Origin: Methanobacteriota archaeon
GTDB taxonomy: Archaea; Halobacteriota; Bog-38; Methanoflorentales; Methanoflorentaceae
Length of the DNA stretch: 64,000 nt
Assembly (NCBI GenBank): GCA_963720465.1
Contig: OY970393.1
Coordinates: 256,001 to 320,000, forward strand
Direction of reading: 5' to 3'
Positions within the stretch are counted from its first letter, which is position 1. Each line of letters begins with the position of its first letter. Positions 33,597 to 54,473 of this stretch are shown piece after piece. Made by a program: the position numbers and the translations under genes. Under the pieces are notes generated by a model that saw only the letters and a program-made list of their open reading frames with translations, was not told where the DNA came from and ran no database searches.

Positions 33597-33807
33597 GATG
33601 TATCCGCTAGCACTCCGGTCTTTTCTCGTTGTTCGCGTTTTTGCAACTCTCTATGACGCTTATTCCTGATAAAAGGTAACAACAGGCTAAGTGTTGTACG
33701 AAGAGCCTCTATTAGCAACCGCCCCGAGATCTGGAGCTGCGGCCGACGTGGAAGTGCCTGCGACGCTGATGTAAAGCATTTATATACGTCTAAACATAGT
33801 AAACTTG

Positions 33808-33903
33808 GCCGCCGTGGCTAAGCTCGGCATAGCGGCTGATTCGTATTTGAGCACTGCTCAAAGAATTATCAGCAGATCGAGGGTTCAAATCCCTCCGGCG
33901 GCT
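33808..33903 (+). tRNA. tRNA-Thr(CGT) with 22-nt intron (33846-33867)
   Basis: GCTGA-TTCGTA-[TTTGAGCACTGCTCAAAGAATT]-A-TCAGC; TATA TTTATATA upstream. Confidence 0.92.
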
Positions 33904-34041
33904 TGCCCAAGGTGCTACTTTTTGCCAAGATTTTGGCGCGTCCTTTTGGAGTGTTATTCGAGAAGGACGAGATTTAGAATTTATATCATTAGGTGTAACA
34001 ATACATAAGGTTTATCATCCATAAAGGCAATCCGAAAAACG

Positions 34042-40795: not shown

Positions 40796-40879
40796 GCACC
40801 GATGGTCTAGTGGCTATGACTTGGGCCTTCCAACGCGTGAAGAAAGCCCACAACCCGGGTTCGAATCCCGGTCGGTGCA
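40796..40879 (+). tRNA. tRNA-Gly(TCC) with 12-nt intron (40833-40844)
   Basis: TGGGC-CTTCCA-[ACGCGTGAAGAA]-A-GCCCA; CUUC pairs with intron GAAG. Confidence 0.92.
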
Positions 40880-44478: not shown

Positions 44479-44721
44479 TCAGCTGCGCTCTTTCGAATAA
44501 CTGATCAACGTGTCGCGCACACATGAAAAATGCTCTGAGACATCATCGTCAAAAGCCGCGCTTCCGCCGTGGTCTGCTTCACCGTCTTTTGCTGCCATCG
44601 AACCCGCGAGCTGGTCAACGGCGCGGGTCAAGCGATCTGCGCACGTTCGGCAATCGGCAAGCGTCGCATTAGGACAGCCGACGCGGAGTCCATAGTAGCA
44701 CACATCGTGTTCTTGGTTCAT
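44479..44721 (-). CDS. Small 4-Cys protein A (80 aa), paralog of 54207-54473
   Basis: MNQEHDVCYYGLRVGCPNATLADCRTCADRLTRAV; 4 nt downstream of the preceding ORF. Confidence 0.65.
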   Translation of the reverse strand: MNQEHDVCYYGLRVGCPNATLADCRTCADRLTRAVDQLAGSMAAKDGEADHGGSAAFDDDVSEHFSCVRDTLISYSKERS

Positions 44722-44725
44722 ACTC

Positions 44726-44860
44726 TTAGGGTGGCGCTCTGTTGCTGGGGCTCTCAACAAGGATCTCCGCCACCGTGGGATCAATCTCAAGTATGGTGCG
44801 AAGCGTCTGTTCAATAATGGCGATGTCGCTTTCCAGTTTCGTTAGTTCCCTGTTTGCCAT
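44726..44860 (-). CDS. Helical microprotein (44 aa)
   Basis: MANRELTKLESDIAIIEQTLRTILEIDP...; strong GGAGGTGA SD upstream. Confidence 0.6.
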   Translation of the reverse strand: MANRELTKLESDIAIIEQTLRTILEIDPTVAEILVESPSNRAPP

Positions 44861-47597: not shown

Positions 47598-48437
47598 TCA
47601 AACCTGCGGTGGGCCTTGTTTTTGTAGTTCTTCAATTCGCCTTGCCGCAGGAACTGACTGTTGCCACAGCATTTCAAAGGTCTCTATCAGGTAATCAGCG
47701 TAGGTGGGGTCATCGGTATAGAGCATTGCAATGGGTTGAGTCAGTGAGAGATGCTTGATATCCAAGTTAATACCATGCAAACAAGTTTTTCTGTCCAGCA
47801 CAGCGAAATATACCCCTCGGTATCCATCTAAATGGCGTACTTCCTCGCCAACGGCCAGTGCTTCTTTAACGAATTCAATTGCGGAGTATGATACATCAGT
47901 CAGCATTCTGAAGCTCGCTCCGCGCTCTATAAGCTTCTTGATTTCGTCTAATATGCCGAATAGCGAAGCGACAGCGATCACCTCTTCAGGACTTACCAGG
48001 ATCACTTCATTCTCGCATGCAGTTGTGAGAGCATTAGCGATGCCGACGAGTTCCTTAATGCTTTTGATAATCTTGAACGTCTTAACTTCGTCCGAGGGCC
48101 GGAACCGCTGTCGCTTTGAGAGCTGCTGCAGCTCCCGCCTTCGCGCCTCCATCTCTCGCAGCTCACTCTCCTGCTTTTTCACTGCGGCTTGGAGAGCGGC
48201 GTCCAGGTCCACTGCGGCGTAAATCGTTGGAGAGTCGAGTGAGGGCCGCACCATGCCTTTTTCAATGAGGCCAGTCAGCGTGCGGTGCACGTCCTCGCGA
48301 TATGTCTTGAGCGACTTTGCGAGAGGCGAGGGGCTCTTGGGGCCGTACTTGAGCAGGTGAAGATAGGTCTGTGCCTCCTTTTCGTTAAGCCCGAAGCCAA
48401 CCAGACGAGCGATAAACTGTGCGTCGTCGTCCATCAT
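47598..48437 (-). CDS. TrmB-like regulator (wHTH + coiled coil + sensor domain), copy T3
   Basis: FGLNEKEAQTYLHLLKYGP...YREDVHRTL..LIEKG; C-terminal EVRH..YRG..F..D, FE.LW. Confidence 0.88.
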   Translation of the reverse strand: MMDDDAQFIARLVGFGLNEKEAQTYLHLLKYGPKSPSPLAKSLKTYREDVHRTLTGLIEKGMVRPSLDSPTIYAAVDLDAALQAAVKKQESELREMEARRRELQQLSKRQRFRPSDEVKTFKIIKSIKELVGIANALTTACENEVILVSPEEVIAVASLFGILDEIKKLIERGASFRMLTDVSYSAIEFVKEALAVGEEVRHLDGYRGVYFAVLDRKTCLHGINLDIKHLSLTQPIAMLYTDDPTYADYLIETFEMLWQQSVPAARRIEELQKQGPPQV

Positions 48438-48814
48438 GACGAGATATCGTAAGCCGTAAATAAACGTTACTGTCCTGATTTTTATATTGCCCTATTTTGT
48501 TAATTAGATGTTTAACGTTCTAGAGCGCCTTACGCTCTGCTTTTATCGTGTGATTATGCTTGGCGGTTATTATCAGTTCAATGCGCTGAGAATAATTGCG
48601 AGATCAACATCTGAGTCGTGCAAACTCATGGGGGATGCTAGAGTAGATCGTTATCAGTCAACTTACCCTTTCGGGGCAACAATAGGAATGCCGAGTGTTT
48701 TTATGAACTATGGTCTAGCACCGGTCGCAATAAGTATTACAGCGGCAATATGGAAGCAGCTCTGGCAGCGTGCAACTGGTCGGTCGAGTGCTCTCAATGT
48801 GCGCAGACCTTCTC

Positions 48815-49273
48815 CTAAAACTCGTGTATCCGCTTCTGCGCATCAGTCGCTTCTGCCCAGGCTATATCGAAGTTTGAAAGGAGGTACTCGGCGTAGTCAG
48901 GATCATCAGTCCAGAATGCCACGATCTTGTCATCAAGCGAGAGATCTTTGACGTTGAAGTTAGTCGAACTAATGCTTTGGCTCTTATCTCCGACGAGCAG
49001 AAACGAGCCGATATCGTTTTCAATATGGCGCAGGTCTACGCCAATGTCGAGGAGTACGCTTACAGTTTCCGCGTATGGTGATGAGATCGTAGTTATTCCG
49101 CGCACTCGTCCACCCTTTTGCATCAGGCCTCTCGATTTCAAGTTGTATTGCGCGGCCATTGCCAACATCGGTGCTGGGAAAAGCCACGCAATGTCAATCT
49201 CTGCAGATTCTATGATGCTTGAACAAACCGTTATGACATCTTTCAGACTTTCAACGATCGTCTCATGAACCAT
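48815..49273 (-). CDS. HTH-less TrmB sensor-domain protein, copy S3
   Basis: ESAE....W..P, GGRVRGIT, LRH, FWTDDPDYAEYL...FD.AW. Confidence 0.8.
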   Translation of the reverse strand: MVHETIVESLKDVITVCSSIIESAEIDIAWLFPAPMLAMAAQYNLKSRGLMQKGGRVRGITTISSPYAETVSVLLDIGVDLRHIENDIGSFLLVGDKSQSISSTNFNVKDLSLDDKIVAFWTDDPDYAEYLLSNFDIAWAEATDAQKRIHEF

Positions 49274-49308
49274 TAACAGAGTGAAATGTCTCGGGGTTTA
49301 TAATGTTG

Positions 49309-49329
49309 CGTGACATCGTTTCCTTCACG
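49309..49329. promoter_or_regulatory. Inverted repeat CGTGA-N11-TCACG next to the TATA of S3
   Basis: Same motif and position at 51361-51381. Confidence 0.55.
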
Positions 49330-49417
49330 TGCTATTATGCCGAGTAGCTGAGTTTCGCTGGGAGGTATGCATTGAGCTTCTCATTGCCGAGCATCCGCGC
49401 TCGCTTTTCACGACTGC

Positions 49418-49545
49418 GCCTCGTTTTAAAAGCTTTTGAATCCGCTCCGCCGCCGGAAATAACGGCTGCGACAATACCTCAAATGTGGCCGTCATGTGTC
49501 GAGCGTAAGCAGCTAATCGGTCCACAGTGCTGCACCTCGTTAATC
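49418..49545 (-). pseudogene. Relic 3' end of a further TrmB-like gene
   Basis: (L)WTD...AAYARHMTATFEVLSQPLFPAAERIQKLLKRG resembles WTDDPAYAQYLTSTFEMLWKQAIPAEQRIEQLLQQG. Confidence 0.6.
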
Positions 49546-49704
49546 AAGCGAAAAACGGGGTATATTTGGGCTAATCTAACTCATAACGCTCGTCAAAAAC
49601 GGAGGTACGTTTCAGTTCAATAGGCTAAGCGTGCGTAGCAAAACGTCACGACACTTCGCAGTCAAGAACAGAGATTATATAGGCGAGTCGGTGATGGGCA
49701 TCCA

Positions 49705-50538
49705 TCAACTTTTCGGAGGGCCTTGCTGTAACAGCTGTTCTATACGCTGCTCTGCAGGGATCGCCTGTTTCCACAACATCTCAAACGTTGACGTGAGGTA
49801 CTGAGCATATGCTGGGTCATCGGTCCAAAGTCCGGAGACAGGCTCGTTGAGGGATATACGCTTGACTTCCGCGTTGATCGCGCTTATAGAGATTTTTCTG
49901 TCAAACACGACGAATGTAACCCCGTGTTCATCAATATGGCGCACTTCTTCACCGATGGCTATCATTTCTCGCACCGGCGCAATAAATGGATACGAAATGT
50001 CGATGATGGCTCGCACCTTTCCTCCGCGCTTGATAAATTCATACGCAGCCTCGTTGACTCCAAAGAGGGAGGCGACAACAGTCAGGTAAGCAGGAGCGGC
50101 TATCAGTCATTCCTCTTGCATCGAGTCAATTAAGGGCATAGAGACAGCGACGAGTTCCTTAATGCTCTTGATGATCTTGAACGTGCTCACTTCATCGGAG
50201 GCCCGGAATCGTTGTTGTTGCGAGAGCTCCTGAAGCTCACGCTTCCTTTCCTCCATCTCCCGGAGTTCGCTCTCCTGCTTCTGCAGAGCGGACCCGAGGG
50301 CGGTGTCGAGGTCGACGGCTGCGTAAACGGTGGGGGAATCAAATGAGGGACGTACCATGCCCTTCTCGATCAACTCAGTGAGGGTGCGGTGCACATCTTC
50401 GCGATACGTCTTCAGCGATTTGGCGATCGGGGACGGAGTCTTGGGGCCGTACTTAAGCAGGTGTAGATACAACAGTGCCTCTTTTTCGGTGAGCCCGAAT
50501 CCAATTAAACGGCGGGTGAACTCGTCGTCAGTGGCCAT
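49705..50538 (-). pseudogene. TrmB-like regulator T2 interrupted by in-frame TGA (50107-50109)
   Basis: Both ORF-track pieces are in the same frame: ...IDSMQEE*LIAAPAYLTVVASLFG..., colinear with paralogs. Confidence 0.8.
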
Positions 50539-50840
50539 TATTGGTCACAACGCATGTGAGCTAAATAATAGATATAGGTTAGCTTCGAAAAAGAAAGGCG
50601 AGGTCAAATACGCTATTTCGAGCGTTACAGCGTCACAGTTCAGTGCTTCAGTAGCATTGAGCCTACATCATTACGCACGGCGTGAGCGGCGGTCGATTGA
50701 AAGCACTATAAGCATCTGCTGTCGGAAAATATTTACGATGTCTACGCAATATGAGAAGAATACGCATGAAAGAATTTTAGTGAACAATCTTGGATATCTT
50801 TACTGATACTATTTGAGCATGCGCTCTTTAACTCGGCGCA

Positions 50841-51326
50841 TTAGAGATGCGAGGGGCTGTCACTAAGCTCTTGTATCCGCTTTTGTGCATCAGTAGCTTC
50901 TACCCAAGTTCTATCAAAGCTTGACAGGAGGTATTCGGCATAATCTGGGTTCTCAGTCCAGAGCGCTACAATCTTATCGTCAAGTGAGAGATCCTTGACA
51001 TTAACGTCAATCGCACTGACGCTTTGCCTGCAGTCTCCTACTACCATAAACGCCCCACTGTACTGTTCCACGTGGCGGACGCCTATCCCAATGTCGATGA
51101 GTTTGCTTACCACTTCGATATACGGCGGTGACACTTGGGTGATCCCTCGCACGTGTCCTCCTTTTTGTATCAGCACTCTGGATTTGTCATTCAGACAGAA
51201 GTGAGCGGCCAAGACCAATAGAGGGGCAGGGACGAGCCAGGAAACTTCCTTCTCTGCAGATTCTAGGATAGTTGAAGCCACAGCTATAGCGTCTTTAACG
51301 CTTTCAATAATGGTCCCATCTATCAT
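50841..51326 (-). CDS. HTH-less TrmB sensor-domain protein, copy S2
   Basis: TIIESVKDA...ESAEKEVSW..P, GGHVRGIT, LWTENPDYAEYL. Confidence 0.8.
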   Translation of the reverse strand: MIDGTIIESVKDAIAVASTILESAEKEVSWLVPAPLLVLAAHFCLNDKSRVLIQKGGHVRGITQVSPPYIEVVSKLIDIGIGVRHVEQYSGAFMVVGDCRQSVSAIDVNVKDLSLDDKIVALWTENPDYAEYLLSSFDRTWVEATDAQKRIQELSDSPSHL

Positions 51327-51360
51327 CAAGCAAAACAGGAGGCCTCGGTTTATAAAGCTG

Positions 51361-51381
51361 CGTGACAAAGTTTACTTCACG
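51361..51381. promoter_or_regulatory. Inverted repeat CGTGA-N11-TCACG next to the TATA of S2
   Basis: CGTGA caaagtttact TCACG beside TTTATAAA (51349-51356). Confidence 0.55.
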
Positions 51382-51451
51382 TTCTAGGTCAGCGACTAAA
51401 AAAGTACTAAAAAGTAAGCAAGGTCAAGCATTTTCCCAAGCGTAGCCCGGC

Positions 51452-52288
51452 TTATGTCTGCGGAGGTCCGTGTTCTAAAAGCTCTTGTATTCGCTGTTCC
51501 GCTGGAACAGCTTGCTTCCAAAACATTTCGAAAGTTGAGACGAGATAGTCAGCATACACGGGATCGTCGGTGTACAGCATGCTGAGCGGCTCATCGAGTC
51601 TAAGATGTTGAATATCAACGTTGATCGCACTGATGCAGTGCTTTTTGTCAAAGACTCCGAAGAACGCCCCGCGGTAATCGGCAAAGTGGCGCACATCGGC
51701 ACCGATATCCAAAAGAGAGCGAATTATGTCGATGAGCCGATACGAGATATCGGCAATGCCGCGGATTTGCGCTCCGCGCTCCTTGAGTTCTTTTTTTGCC
51801 TCAATAATGCCAAACACTTCGCTAAATTCTACTCCTTCCCGATTTGACAGCCATAAGAACTCTTCTTTGGCTGAAAGGATGACAGGTATGGCTGTGCCGA
51901 TAACTTCCTTGATACTTTTGAGGATCTTAAACGTTGCGACGTCTTCGGAGGGTCGAAATCGTTGCTGCTTTGCTAGTTCCTGCAACTCCCGCGTTCGCGC
52001 CTGCATTTCGCGGAGCTCGCTTTCATGTTTCTTGAGCGCGGCCTGGAGCGCGGTGTCGAGGTCCACCGCGGCGTACATTGTAGGTGAATCGAGGGAGGGG
52101 CGCACCATGCCTTTTTCAATCAAGCTTGTAAGCGTACGGTGCACGTCTTCTCGGTAGGTCTTCAGGGATTTCGCGAGAGGCGACGGGGTTTTTGGTCCGT
52201 ACTTGAGCAAGTGAAGGTAGAGCTGTGCCTCCTTTTCGCTGAGCCCGAAGTCTATAAGACGAGTAATGAAGTCGTCGTCGTCACCCAT
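51452..52288 (-). CDS. TrmB-like regulator, copy T1
   Basis: FGLSEKEAQLYLHLLKYGP...YREDVHRTL; full sensor domain. Confidence 0.88.
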   Translation of the reverse strand: MGDDDDFITRLIDFGLSEKEAQLYLHLLKYGPKTPSPLAKSLKTYREDVHRTLTSLIEKGMVRPSLDSPTMYAAVDLDTALQAALKKHESELREMQARTRELQELAKQQRFRPSEDVATFKILKSIKEVIGTAIPVILSAKEEFLWLSNREGVEFSEVFGIIEAKKELKERGAQIRGIADISYRLIDIIRSLLDIGADVRHFADYRGAFFGVFDKKHCISAINVDIQHLRLDEPLSMLYTDDPVYADYLVSTFEMFWKQAVPAEQRIQELLEHGPPQT

Positions 52289-52394
52289 AATCACAGTAAT
52301 TGGACGGCAGCCAGTAGAAAGCGTTACTATCTATAGCTCAGATCAAGAAGCGCCCTAGCGGCAACTGCCGGTTAAACAAACGAAAGAGTGCGTT

Positions 52395-52859
52395 CTACAG
52401 TTCTCGGATCCGCTTTTCTGCATCGACTCCTTCGCTCCATGCGGTCTCAAACGTGGCGATGAGGAATTCAGTGTAGGATTGGTCATTGGTCCAGAATGCA
52501 ACTAGCGGATCGTCAAGCGAGACATCCACGCTATTCACGTTGATCGAACTGATGCTCTCTTTCTTGTCTACGACAAGCATGAACGCTCCCTGGTACTGAT
52601 CGATGTGGCGTAATTCTTCGCCGTTGTCCACGAGTTTGCGCGCCACATCAAGGGAGCTTCCTGAAATCTTGGTGATCCCCCGTACGCGTCCGCCGTTTTC
52701 TATCAGCATTTTGGTCTTGTTTGGTATGCCGAATTGAAAGGATAAGGCCAGTATGGCAGGTTCGAGAAGCCACATGACTTCCTTTTCCGCGGATTCTACG
52801 ATATTTGATCCTGCGGCTAAGGCGTCCTTGACACTTTCAATAATGATCCCTTTGGCCAT
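52395..52859 (-). CDS. HTH-less TrmB sensor-domain protein, copy S1
   Basis: MAKGIIIESVKDA...ESAEKEVMW..P, GGRVRGIT, FWTND..Y. Confidence 0.8.
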   Translation of the reverse strand: MAKGIIIESVKDALAAGSNIVESAEKEVMWLLEPAILALSFQFGIPNKTKMLIENGGRVRGITKISGSSLDVARKLVDNGEELRHIDQYQGAFMLVVDKKESISSINVNSVDVSLDDPLVAFWTNDQSYTEFLIATFETAWSEGVDAEKRIREL

Positions 52860-52996
52860 TATTATCAGATAACGTCCTCGAGCTGATAAAGCTGTGCCTC
52901 CTAGCACGTCGTGAGGGTTCTCGTCGCTTGGATGCGCCTGTGCTGTTTGTACCAAACTGAAACGTCTCAATTCGAGGTTGGAACGGACTCTAATGA

Positions 52997-54241
52997 CTAG
53001 TGCTCTTCCCGCAGCAGCTCGTTTATGCGCTGTTCTGCGCCAGACGCCTGCTCCCAAGCCATCTCGAACGCGCTCATAAGGAATTCCGCTTGCGCAACGC
53101 CATCGCTCCATAGCGCCTCAACATTTTCGTCGAGCGAAAGGGTGGCCTTAAGAGCGGCGTGAATGAGGCTTATGCTTCGCTTGCCATCGGCCACGGCCAA
53201 CGTCATCCCGCGGTATTGGTTTGTATGCCGCAGTTCAATGCCACCATCCAGGTACGCGCGTCCAGCAGAAAGGTTCTGAAGCGAGATATCGAGCACGCTG
53301 CGGACACGCACGTCGCGGCCCACCGCACATTTAAGATGATCGAGGAACCCCCCCATCGTGATGAGGTTGAATCGGGGATGGGCGACGAATACAAGAGACG
53401 TCTCTGCCGAGTTGATGAGCTGTGAGATGGCAGCAACAAGTTCGCCGACGGTTTTCAGCATCTTGAACGCGTGGGCGTCGTCTGCTCCGCGGCTCAGCGC
53501 GCCTTTTGCGTCCCCCGCAAGCTCGTTCTTGACCCTCTGCAACCGATGCAGCTCGCACAGCCGGGACGTGAGCGCGCCGTCGAGTGCGTCTACAAGGTCT
53601 ATAGGCGCGTAGCACGATGAATCCTCCTTGCTTTTCACGATTACACCTGCGTCAATCAATCTCGCGCAACGGCGATAAGCGTCCTCGCGGTACGTCTCGA
53701 GGGATCGCGCGAGGTCTCCAGCACGCTTCGGTCCGTACTTGAGTAAATGCACGTAGAGCTGTGCCTCCTTCTCACCAAGCCCGAGCTCAGTCAGTAGTTC
53801 CGTGAGCCCTTGCTCATTATCGAGAGCGAGAGCTTTAGATGGGGGGGTTTCATCTGCGGTACGTAATTGCGTGCTATTCGCGAGTACGATGAGCTCCCGC
53901 TTTATCGCCTCCATCCGACGAAGTTCGCGTTGGCGCGGAAGCAGCACGGCGTCGAGAGCATCTTCTAAATCGATCGCTGTATAGACAGCCGGGCTCTCTT
54001 TCTTTGCGGTCACAATGGTCTTATCGGCGAGGCTTGCAAGTATTCGATAAACCTGAAGGCGATACGTCTTGAGGGATCGCGCGAGGTCTCCAGCACGCTT
54101 CGGTCCGTACTTGAGTAAATGCACGTAGAGCTGTGCCTCCTTCTCACCAAGCCCGAGCTCACTCAGTAGTTTTGCGCACGGTTCTGCATCGATGCCACAT
54201 GCCCCGTTACTCGTGCGGTAACTCGCTATCTCGCCATACAT
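52997..54241 (-). CDS. TrmB-like regulator with tandem duplicated wHTH domains (T0)
   Basis: Two copies of ELGLGEKEAQLYVHLLKYGPKRAGDLARSL followed by one sensor domain; GGAGG SD before ATG 54241. Confidence 0.85.
   Translation of the reverse strand: MYGEIASYRTSNGACGIDAEPCAKLLSELGLGEKEAQLYVHLLKYGPKRAGDLARSLKTYRLQVYRILASLADKTIVTAKKESPAVYTAIDLEDALDAVLLPRQRELRRMEAIKRELIVLANSTQLRTADETPPSKALALDNEQGLTELLTELGLGEKEAQLYVHLLKYGPKRAGDLARSLETYREDAYRRCARLIDAGVIVKSKEDSSCYAPIDLVDALDGALTSRLCELHRLQRVKNELAGDAKGALSRGADDAHAFKMLKTVGELVAAISQLINSAETSLVFVAHPRFNLITMGGFLDHLKCAVGRDVRVRSVLDISLQNLSAGRAYLDGGIELRHTNQYRGMTLAVADGKRSISLIHAALKATLSLDENVEALWSDGVAQAEFLMSAFEMAWEQASGAEQRINELLREEH
53691..54171. repeat. Near-perfect direct repeat: 53691-53799 vs 54063-54171 (91-nt exact core)
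   Basis: Identical gagggatcgc...ccgagctca at 53699-53789 and 54071-54161. Confidence 0.9.
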
Positions 54242-54473
54242 TGTGCTCCTCCCGCAAAATGTTCGCCACTTTTTTTTCACGCGCCTCTGCAGCGACGCCA
54301 GTGCCGGGCCATGTACATATGCGCGGCGCGTCGGTGCTGCTAACACCCTGATGCAGCACGTAATTTACTGCGTTTGTTAGGCGTTCTGCGCACGTGTCGC
54401 AGTTGGGGTCGCACGCGGCGTTGAGGCAGCCAAAGTGGACGCCGTAATAGCACCCCAACTTCTTCGTGACCAT
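54207..54473 (-). CDS. Small 4-Cys protein B (88 aa), paralog of 44479-44721
   Basis: MVTKKLGCYYGVHFGCLNAACDPNCDTCAERLTNAV; AGGAGG SD; overlaps the T0 start. Confidence 0.68.
   Translation of the reverse strand: MVTKKLGCYYGVHFGCLNAACDPNCDTCAERLTNAVNYVLHQGVSSTDAPRICTWPGTGVAAEAREKKVANILREEHNVWRDSELPHE

Follow-up and report, generated by a model that had tools for sequence, protein, structure and literature searches.

The archaeal regulator TrmBL2 is described as consisting of a winged helix-turn-helix (wHTH), a dimerisation helix and one C-terminal domain, without the extra C-terminal sugar-binding domain of TrmB and TrmBL1 (PMC4877046; PMC4158304). In other regulator families, full-length members are found to assemble with relatives that lack the helix-turn-helix (HTH). 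For example, the stand-alone RAM protein DM1 of the archaeal Lrp/FFRP group forms a hetero-octamer with the full-length FL11 in vitro, and combinatorial assemblies have been proposed (PMC2995911), and the bacterial LuxR-type protein TrlR forms inactive heterodimers with TraR (PMC11655674). Here we analyse a stretch of 64,000 nucleotides (nt) from a Methanobacteriota archaeon of the Methanoflorentaceae (assembly GCA_963720465.1, contig OY970393.1, positions 256,001 to 320,000; the window in what follows), which contains an array of genes for TrmB-type regulators (T) interspersed with genes for their C-terminal domain alone (S). S is an old, selectively maintained gene class and not a collection of decay products, and the conserved unit in relatives of this archaeon is T followed by S with a fixed spacing.

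The host lineage Bog-38 (Candidatus Methanoflorentaceae, Rice Cluster II) is presented in a preprint as a group of abundant hydrogenotrophic methanogens of northern peatlands (10.1101/2025.08.21.671631), and the close relatives of the archaeon appear to be peat, bog and fen archaea. The genome to which the window belongs is one contig of 2.31 Mb and carries 4 S genes, about 8 intact and 3 broken T-type genes, one HTH-only gene and one protein with an HTH and three C-terminal domains (C-domains). Besides the array there is a second, isolated pair in the same genome (L001; related loci are given by such L numbers), in which a T gene of 278 amino acids (aa) is followed after 120 nt by an S gene of 154 aa. 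The guess that an integrase stands beside this pair was dropped, Pfam having matched none of the open reading frames (ORFs) there.

Domain make-up of T and S

The array occupies the minus strand of the window from 47598 to 54241 and reads, in transcription order, T0, S1, T1, S2, T2, a T relic, S3 and T3, as taken from the ORF list and the translations; the seven co-oriented paralogues and the relic that an earlier note on this DNA had listed are thus all present. S1 (52395–52859, 154 aa), S2 (50841–51326, 161 aa) and S3 (48815–49273, 152 aa) are stand-alone C-domain proteins of the PLD-like type. Their length of 152–161 aa and the full alignment of S with the T C-domain, in S1 over its entire length, agree with the description of S in that note as the C-terminal domain only, of about 150–160 aa. 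T1 (51452–52288, 278 aa) and T3 (47598–48437, 279 aa), the latter closing the array without a following S, are regulators of TrmBL2 architecture. T0 (52997–54241, 414 aa) differs from these in having two wHTH-plus-helix modules in front of one PLD-like C-domain.

The wHTH family PF01978, which has a cut-off of 25.6 bits, is matched by T0 with 97 bits (two stretches, E = 5.6e-28), by T1 with 55.2 bits (E = 6.6e-15), by the N-terminal part of T2 with 52.9 bits and by T3 with 50.7 bits (E = 1.6e-13), which makes T a member of the TrmB family. For S1–S3 the Pfam search gave no HTH match, and S1 has no match in Pfam or NCBIfam. It should be noted, however, that the presumed sensor corresponds only to the first, PLD-like subdomain of the TrmB effector domain and lacks the sugar-binding one. 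Matches to PF11495 (Regulator_TrmB) extend only over profile positions of about 1–137 of 233 and score 13.8–17.7 bits, under the cut-off of 22.2 bits; for example, S3 matches positions 4–136 of 233 with E = 0.0022, again below the cut-off. T ends about 10 residues past the C-domain, and the sugar-binding second subdomain of PF11495 is missing. Because of this absence, the label "ligand sensor" for the C-domain is an assumption.

A profile built from T aligns end to end with the TrmBL2 structures 5bpd, 5box and 5bqt (profile positions 7–260 with residues 6–261 of the 264 of 5bpd, E = 1.2e-6). The C-domain of the same profile finds MitoPLD/Zucchini (E = 8.3e-10), and further PLD-fold matches are a poxvirus PLD-type nicking-joining enzyme (E = 1.3e-4) and PLD3 (E = 0.047). 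Zucchini is also the best solved relative of the S profile (E = 0.009). S aligns to the whole T C-domain, which is the C-terminal 150 residues, starting exactly at its first residues, and hhalign of the S and T profiles gives a probability of 100% and E = 8e-48. The catalytic HxK(x)4D motif is absent: in HMMER alignments HHK of Zucchini stands opposite RGA in T1 and the S consensus has neither H nor K there, the H and K of the HKD motif being aligned to RGA, SGA or QGA in T and S. Neither protein is therefore expected to act as a nuclease or lipase. The block that S and T both conserve most strongly (R84, H85, G91 and D98 in S2 numbering, G91 being invariant in S) lies in and beside the stretch that aligns to the HKD region of Zucchini. 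By these alignments T is predicted to be a TrmBL2-architecture protein in which a winged HTH and a dimerisation helix are followed by a single PLD-fold domain that is catalytically dead, and S to be such a dead PLD-like domain standing alone.

The T paralogues differ mainly behind the DNA-binding part. T1–T3 are 78–82% identical in their N-termini and 49–50% in their C-domains, in agreement with the near-identical HTH and the diverging C-domains noticed before. The recognition-helix string KSLKTYREDVHRTL is found exactly in 20 of the 32 intact T genes of the window and the related loci, and in 31 of them if the pattern is loosened. Since the N-termini of T1 and T3 have a synonymous divergence (dS) of 1.4, with a DNA identity of 75–76% over 300 nt, the near-identity of the HTH is to be ascribed to selection rather than to recent gene conversion.

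The match of T to TrmBL2 over the full length and in the same domain order raises the question of whether T could be a chromatin protein or global repressor that coats DNA as tetramers and filaments, with S capping or limiting the oligomerisation and no ligand signal being involved. TrmBL2 is reported to be tetrameric and to be without the sugar-binding subdomain (PMC4877046), and the recognition helix common to all T paralogues would suit such a role as well. However, TrmBL2 is described in the same source as a single, highly conserved gene per genome, whereas T genes are multi-copy and fast-turning, with many broken copies and diverging C-domains, and the palindromes at the promoters of S2, S3 and T2 (see below) point to specific sites. 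We consider a chromatin role distinctly improbable.

Relatives of the C-domain are also found fused, as HTH-C-C (425–586 aa), HTH-C-C-C (585–607 aa), C-C-C-histidine-kinase ATPase (HATPase_c) and a protein with six C-domains, with linkers mostly of 5–15 residues. On these fused relatives PLDc_2 is matched with E values of 1e-6 to 3e-3, on both sides of the 27-bit cut-off. The genome itself encodes, outside the window (G000:C1:2023936-2025747, minus strand), a protein of 604 aa with a TrmB-type N-terminus and three tandem PLD-like C-domains. At G000:C1:1767321-1767794 (minus strand), likewise outside the window, there is an open frame of 158 aa that comprises the HTH-plus-helix part of T without the C-domain, the mirror image of S.

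T followed by S as the conserved unit

Loci were mapped with HTH and C-domain profiles in the window, at 17 public-genome loci and in 20 further regions of relatives. The loci were picked via their S genes, and the counts describe neighbourhoods of S, not all T genes. At non-redundant loci the gene that immediately precedes S on the same strand is of the T type for 30 of the 40 intact S genes (9 T, 8 T0 and 13 broken T). From T or broken T to S the domain-to-domain gap measures 147–212 nt in 21 of 22 cases, with values near 150 nt in one genus and near 192 nt in the other. On the downstream side of S a T-type gene is present at 21 of 40 only, with gaps of 34–446 nt, and at 15 of 40 there is nothing within 600 nt. 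Several loci consist of T then S only (e.g., L001, L017, L021, L024, L028 and L038), whereas a lone S-then-T pair was seen at L036 only. In the window the intergenic distances from T to S are 137 nt (T0–S1), 125 nt (T1–S2) and about 135 nt (relic–S3), and those from S to T 106, 302 and 377 nt. The pairing pointed out in the earlier note is thus conserved in relatives, but the proposed order, S preceding T, has to be reversed; S appears before T in the window because the genes stand in a tandem array. Seen from the other side, an intact S comes next after 17 of the 41 intact T or T0 genes, and a broken S after 7. T and the S behind it co-diverge to some extent (Mantel r = 0.48, p = 0.03, n = 9, as compared with r = 0.11, p = 0.18, n = 12 for S and the T behind it).

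S has a single origin. A tree built from 81 C-domains groups 39 of the 40 S rows, S2 and S3 included, in a single clade (SH-aLRT 97), and the T0 C-domains form a separate clade with a support of 100. The exception (L013_S_3192) is a T0-type C-domain without an HTH match in its reading frame. When outgroups are included, S is the sister of T (99), T0 lies outside both, both genera are found within S, and the divergent S-like proteins P0106, P0088 and P0079 fall inside the S clade. With S as sister to T and both genera inside, S must have had one origin, in a T-like gene, that predates the separation of the two genera. This speaks against recent truncations of the adjacent T genes, with which the S genes do not group. 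In line with the tree, the S proteins of the window are, as the earlier note had it, closer to each other (47–62% identity) than to the T C-domains (27–40%).

It might be argued that S genes are by-products of unequal recombination that decay neutrally. The array does contain a T relic, a decayed S promoter and a T gene with a stop codon, and broken S copies occur in L014, L019 and L032. The ratio of nonsynonymous to synonymous substitutions (dN/dS) is, however, between 0.15 and 0.58 in all 46 S pairs scored, which is not neutral, with medians of 0.26, 0.37 and 0.36 in three S orthologue groups; to their orthologues S1 has 0.24–0.39, S2 0.31–0.37 and S3 0.35–0.58. These values are like those of the T C-domains (0.15–0.29) and of T0 (0.20–0.26), the T N-termini being far more constrained (0.08–0.09). 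Moreover, the frames are intact, the S clade is older than the two-genus split, and the T-to-S spacing and the S promoter are kept although dS is saturated across the two genera. Neutral decay has a probability close to nil for the S genes in general, and for the class as a whole it is refuted by the clade, the dN/dS values and the promoter conservation. S had been described in the earlier note as a maintained class; its monophyly, its purifying selection and its own conserved promoter bear this out.

The unit is amplified within one family. Of 23 other genomes of the same family, which come from two genera, 22 contain C-domain matches, 3–32 per genome, as compared with none at E = 1e-5 in 17 genomes that represent 12 other families. 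When the phylum was sampled evenly at E = 1e-3, with 200 other genomes of at least 80% completeness, matches were obtained in 12 of 12 family members and in 10 of 188 genomes outside the family, there with 1–2 weak matches each (best E = 3e-12); the two outside matches listed are T-like frames of 293 and 320 aa. T/S is therefore a candidate lineage-defining regulatory device, being amplified in the family and weak or not found in those other families of the phylum that the searches covered. At E <= 1e-3, a HMMER search of 1.84 billion protein representatives returned 413 proteins. None of the 73 close S homologues in a large protein collection has a Pfam domain, and those that carry a name are called "hypothetical protein". 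Stand-alone copies of the C-domain as such are not unique, however, because a feature search of the ESM Atlas found clusters of 153–180 aa in other archaeal phyla, automatically named TrmB sugar-binding-domain proteins. A metagenome scan meant to show the gene context of P0106 found nothing.

In relatives the array is found at one syntenic locus, bordered on one side by hydantoinase-like and ATP-grasp genes and on the other by methyltransferase and UbiA genes, and in several species cofactor-biosynthesis genes form its flanks. Its content varies from T0-S-S-T and T0-S-T-T over T0-S-brokenT-S-T and T0-S-brokenT-S-T-relic-T to T0-T-relic-S-S-T-T, and T3 orthologues are the ends of the arrays in L004, L006 and L009. 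The region is a tandemly amplified, lineage-specific two-gene module with copy-number turnover at one locus. Between 46001 and 52000 of the window, which covers the methyltransferase gene and most of the array, G+C is 0.476–0.494; in the flanks it is 0.52–0.58.

Copy-number turnover, the many pseudogenes, a G+C content below that of the flanks and the PLD-type fold, including a weak match of T0 to DrmC (E = 0.023), are what one would expect if the array were part of a mobile element or anti-virus defence island, with T/S acting either as an addiction pair or as a regulator together with its PLD-like effector. Against this, PADLOC found on T only weak matches at the level of the wHTH (Csa3, CasR and CARF models, E = 1e-5 to 9e-3) and none on S, the search of viral contigs found no relative, the catalytic HxK is absent, and in several species the array keeps its syntenic place amid cofactor-biosynthesis genes. 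It is therefore highly improbable that the array is mobile or serves defence.

Promoters of S and the possible action of S on T

Of 39 S promoters, 32 have a TATA box at −40 to −20. In S2 and S3 the box (TTTATAAA at 51349–51356 and ATTATAAA at 49297–49304, respectively, minus strand) ends 22 nt before the ATG. S1 has a TATA-like box, TTTATCAG (52883–52890, minus strand), 23 nt before the ATG, within a promoter type (GGCACAGCTTTATAA) that is kept in orthologues behind T0. An own TATA box near the ATG had already been noticed for the S genes. The usual spacing between TATA box and start in archaea implies that the S mRNA is leaderless or nearly so. S thus has a conserved promoter of its own, probably leaderless, and oligo-T tracts separate S from T. 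Scans for sigma-70 promoters and for terminators, which are ill-suited to archaea, found nothing above shuffles.

Next to the TATA box, at −56 to −34, a GTCAC box is present in 26 of 39 S promoters as compared with 0 of 32 T promoters. In S2 and S3 it is the right arm of an exact palindrome, CGTGA-N11-TCACG: the S2 promoter (51349–51381) has the palindrome at 51361–51381 and the GTCAC box at 51362–51366, and the S3 promoter (49297–49329) has the palindrome, with its GTCAC box, at 49309–49329, both on the minus strand. With up to one mismatch the palindrome occurs 7 times in the window against 3.1 expected, a count that is not significant, 6 of 100 shuffles reaching 7; only the placement of the two exact palindromes at S2 and S3 is for this reason taken into account. 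Genome-wide there are 6 exact sites, 4 of them away from S2 and S3, and the module of GTCAC plus TATA occurs at S2, S3, S4 and one other place. According to the model for Tgr/TrmBL1, a site upstream of the TATA box fits activation and a site at the start fits repression (PMC4158304). T proteins may bind the GTCAC box beside the TATA box and control the S promoters. The T2 promoter has TCAC-N7-GTGA between TATA box and ATG; as a general operator this motif was rejected for being too rare, its placement between TATA box and ATG being found in 2 of 32 intact T promoters besides that of T2.

Behind T2 the order is a decayed S promoter copy, the T 3′ relic and S3. The decayed promoter (49600–49680, minus strand) aligns with the T-to-S intergenic regions, has a degenerate palindrome with one mismatch at 49630–49650, and its TATA box is broken by insertions. 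The relic (49325–49525, minus strand) preserves about the last 40 codons of a T gene: TFEVLSQPLFPAAERIQKLLKRG aligns to T C-termini, and the homology with T is confined to about the first 37 codons of the ORF. This arrangement fits a deletion of one S and most of the next T. T2 itself (49705–50538, minus strand) is a T gene in one frame apart from a single in-frame TGA at 50107–50109, which the earlier note, counting T2 among the full-length genes, had missed. The TGA stands where the paralogue at L001 has W and would be either a mutation of TGG to TGA or an error of the assembly. In L005, L006, L010, L023, L026 and other related loci, many of the T genes that lie between intact S genes are frameshifted or fragmentary. 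Some of the breaks may be long-read assembly errors, but not all, because the short-read assemblies (L005 and L010) show them too.

As to the action of S, we favour, with slightly less than even confidence, that S pairs with the T C-domains via PLD-type dimerisation and modulates T as a partner subunit. S would then change the oligomeric state and the DNA binding of T and act as partner or antagonist, in the manner of stand-alone RAM with Lrp or of TrlR with TraR. We infer the pairing because PLD proteins with a single HKD lobe dimerise (they are reported to form their site by homodimerisation; PMC10783504), because the C-domain is often fused in tandem, and because the conserved block of R84, H85, G91 and D98 lies by the HKD region. 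Several findings weigh against a partner role. The fused multi-domain proteins are a distant separate group and not T-S fusions, and their support for pairing therefore does not reach beyond the domain family as such. The TrmB sugar-binding subdomain is absent from the T/S domain. Thirteen of 39 S promoters, mostly of the S1 type behind T0 and related copies, are without the GTCAC box and carry GGCACAGC or similar in its place. The Mantel signal is small and confounded by the two-genus split, and T3 and several other T genes are without an S. Expression rests on the contigs of one RNA library, from a relative and possibly derived from DNA. In this peat metatranscriptome, contigs 90–95% identical over the T0, S1 and T3 orthologues have a junction 48409->52319; they belong to a relative whose array is the shorter T0-S1-T3, a T3-like gene coming straight after S1. 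Stretches without coverage carry no information here.

A further point against it, that 13 of the 40 intact S genes follow a broken T, shows S to be independent of its neighbour in cis. It is also a ground for supposing that S works alone, e.g., as a homodimeric small-molecule-binding or buffering protein, or with another partner, and that its place behind T reflects its origin by duplication and loss of the HTH. The promoter of its own, the oligo-T tracts between T and S, the ESM Atlas clusters of 153–180 aa elsewhere in Archaea and the reported ability of stand-alone RAM proteins to bind ligands unaided (PMC2995911) agree with such a function. On the other hand, the T-to-S spacing is fixed across two genera in spite of the saturated dS, S is seen only in the family with an expanded T set, the PLD catalytic residues are replaced, and the TrmB sugar-binding subdomain is missing. 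We regard it as somewhat unlikely, though to be taken seriously, that S works without T.

T0 orthologues are at the array head in 8 further distinct loci, and in 8 of 9 loci with T0 the next gene is an S. T0 and one S together have the domain count of a T homodimer, and we put forward the hypothesis that T0 and S1 match one in this sense. The two modules of T0 are identical in 59 of 100 residues, and the first 45 codons in 119 of 135 nt. An internal repeat of 127 nt, 93% identical (window 53673–53799 and 54045–54171), covers both HTH-module starts, stops before the recognition helices and suggests internal gene conversion or strong constraint. From the recognition helix on, the modules diverge sharply (TYRLQVYRIL versus TYREDAYRRC). 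A more far-reaching and rather improbable extension is a combinatorial regulator code, in which T paralogues with one DNA-reading helix and different PLD-like domains would compete for a common operator, S subunits would decide the T assemblies via PLD-type heterodimerisation, and T0 plus S1 would be a split single-chain T dimer on an asymmetric site. With such a code the TrmB family would gain its first subunit-exchange switch of the kind, and the dominant northern-peat methanogens a main environmental sensing device.

Just upstream of T0 there is a small Cys-rich ORF (54207–54473, minus strand), of which the first 42 codons or so are conserved (GCYYGVHFGCL..DPNC..CAERLTNAVNYVL). By tblastn it is found upstream of T0 in L004, L006, L007, L009, L010, L013, L014 and L018, and in L002, L038 and L040 it precedes a single T gene. 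It has no match in Pfam or PADLOC and is a possible accessory gene. A second copy (44479–44814, minus strand) lies upstream of an ORF of 524 aa, which is putatively patatin-like, judging from a motif. Elsewhere in the window, at 33807–33904 and 40796–40879, ARAGORN reports two tRNA genes with four-base anticodons and extra length, which are probably intron-containing archaeal tRNAs.

Comparison with known regulator systems

Among the described proteins TrmBL2 from Thermococcales is the most similar to T, with the same number and order of domains and nearly equal length (264 versus 278 aa). It differs in being, as characterised in PMC4877046, an abundant chromatin protein, single and highly conserved, whereas T is multi-copy and fast-turning with diverging C-domains. 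Full-text literature searches found no HTH-less partner gene for TrmBL2. With TrmB, TrmBL1 and Tgr, T shares the wHTH family PF01978 and a homologous first effector subdomain (weak PF11495), and the TCAC-N7-GTGA of the T2 promoter recalls the TGM, TATCAC-N5-GTGATA (PMC4158304). The second subdomain, to which PMC4158304 assigns six of the seven sugar-contacting residues of TrmB, is missing in T, and no sugar-metabolism genes adjoin the T/S array. The best matches of the C-domain among solved structures are Zucchini/MitoPLD and Nuc, single-lobe proteins that, as reported, must dimerise (PMC10783504); they differ in that the H and K of their HKD motif are replaced in T and S.

The concept of a partner without an HTH has precedents. 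Like S, the stand-alone RAM protein DM1 is a regulator paralogue that has kept only the effector or assembly domain (PMC2995911), although it has the RAM fold, S being PLD-like, and belongs to another regulator family; a fixed regulator-then-partner unit, a tandem array and a dedicated conserved promoter are not mentioned in the consulted parts of that paper. The LuxR-type proteins TrlR and CerN are, according to PMC11655674, HTH-less paralogues that are encoded near the full-length regulators TraR and CerM, respectively, and counteract them. The identity of CerN and CerM is given there as 31%, an old divergence like that of S and T. Unlike T/S, which is an amplified family, these are single pairs, bacterial, of another fold and with a known ligand (N-acyl homoserine lactone).

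The earlier note knew of no described system of this kind. This stands insofar as full-text searches, with most subscription journals outside their coverage, found no HTH-less TrmB paralogue, and it does not hold for the concept, which is known from Lrp/FFRP and LuxR. New are the conserved T-then-S module with its own promoter, the amplification in arrays, a T0 with two HTH modules, and a single DNA-reading helix combined with many C-domains. The organisms of the host family, which are not yet in culture, are of importance for the emission of methane. The idea of an HTH-less paralogue as partner, so far familiar from Lrp and LuxR regulators, is hereby extended to the TrmB family, and T/S offers a natural series of paired genes for studying how such partners evolve.

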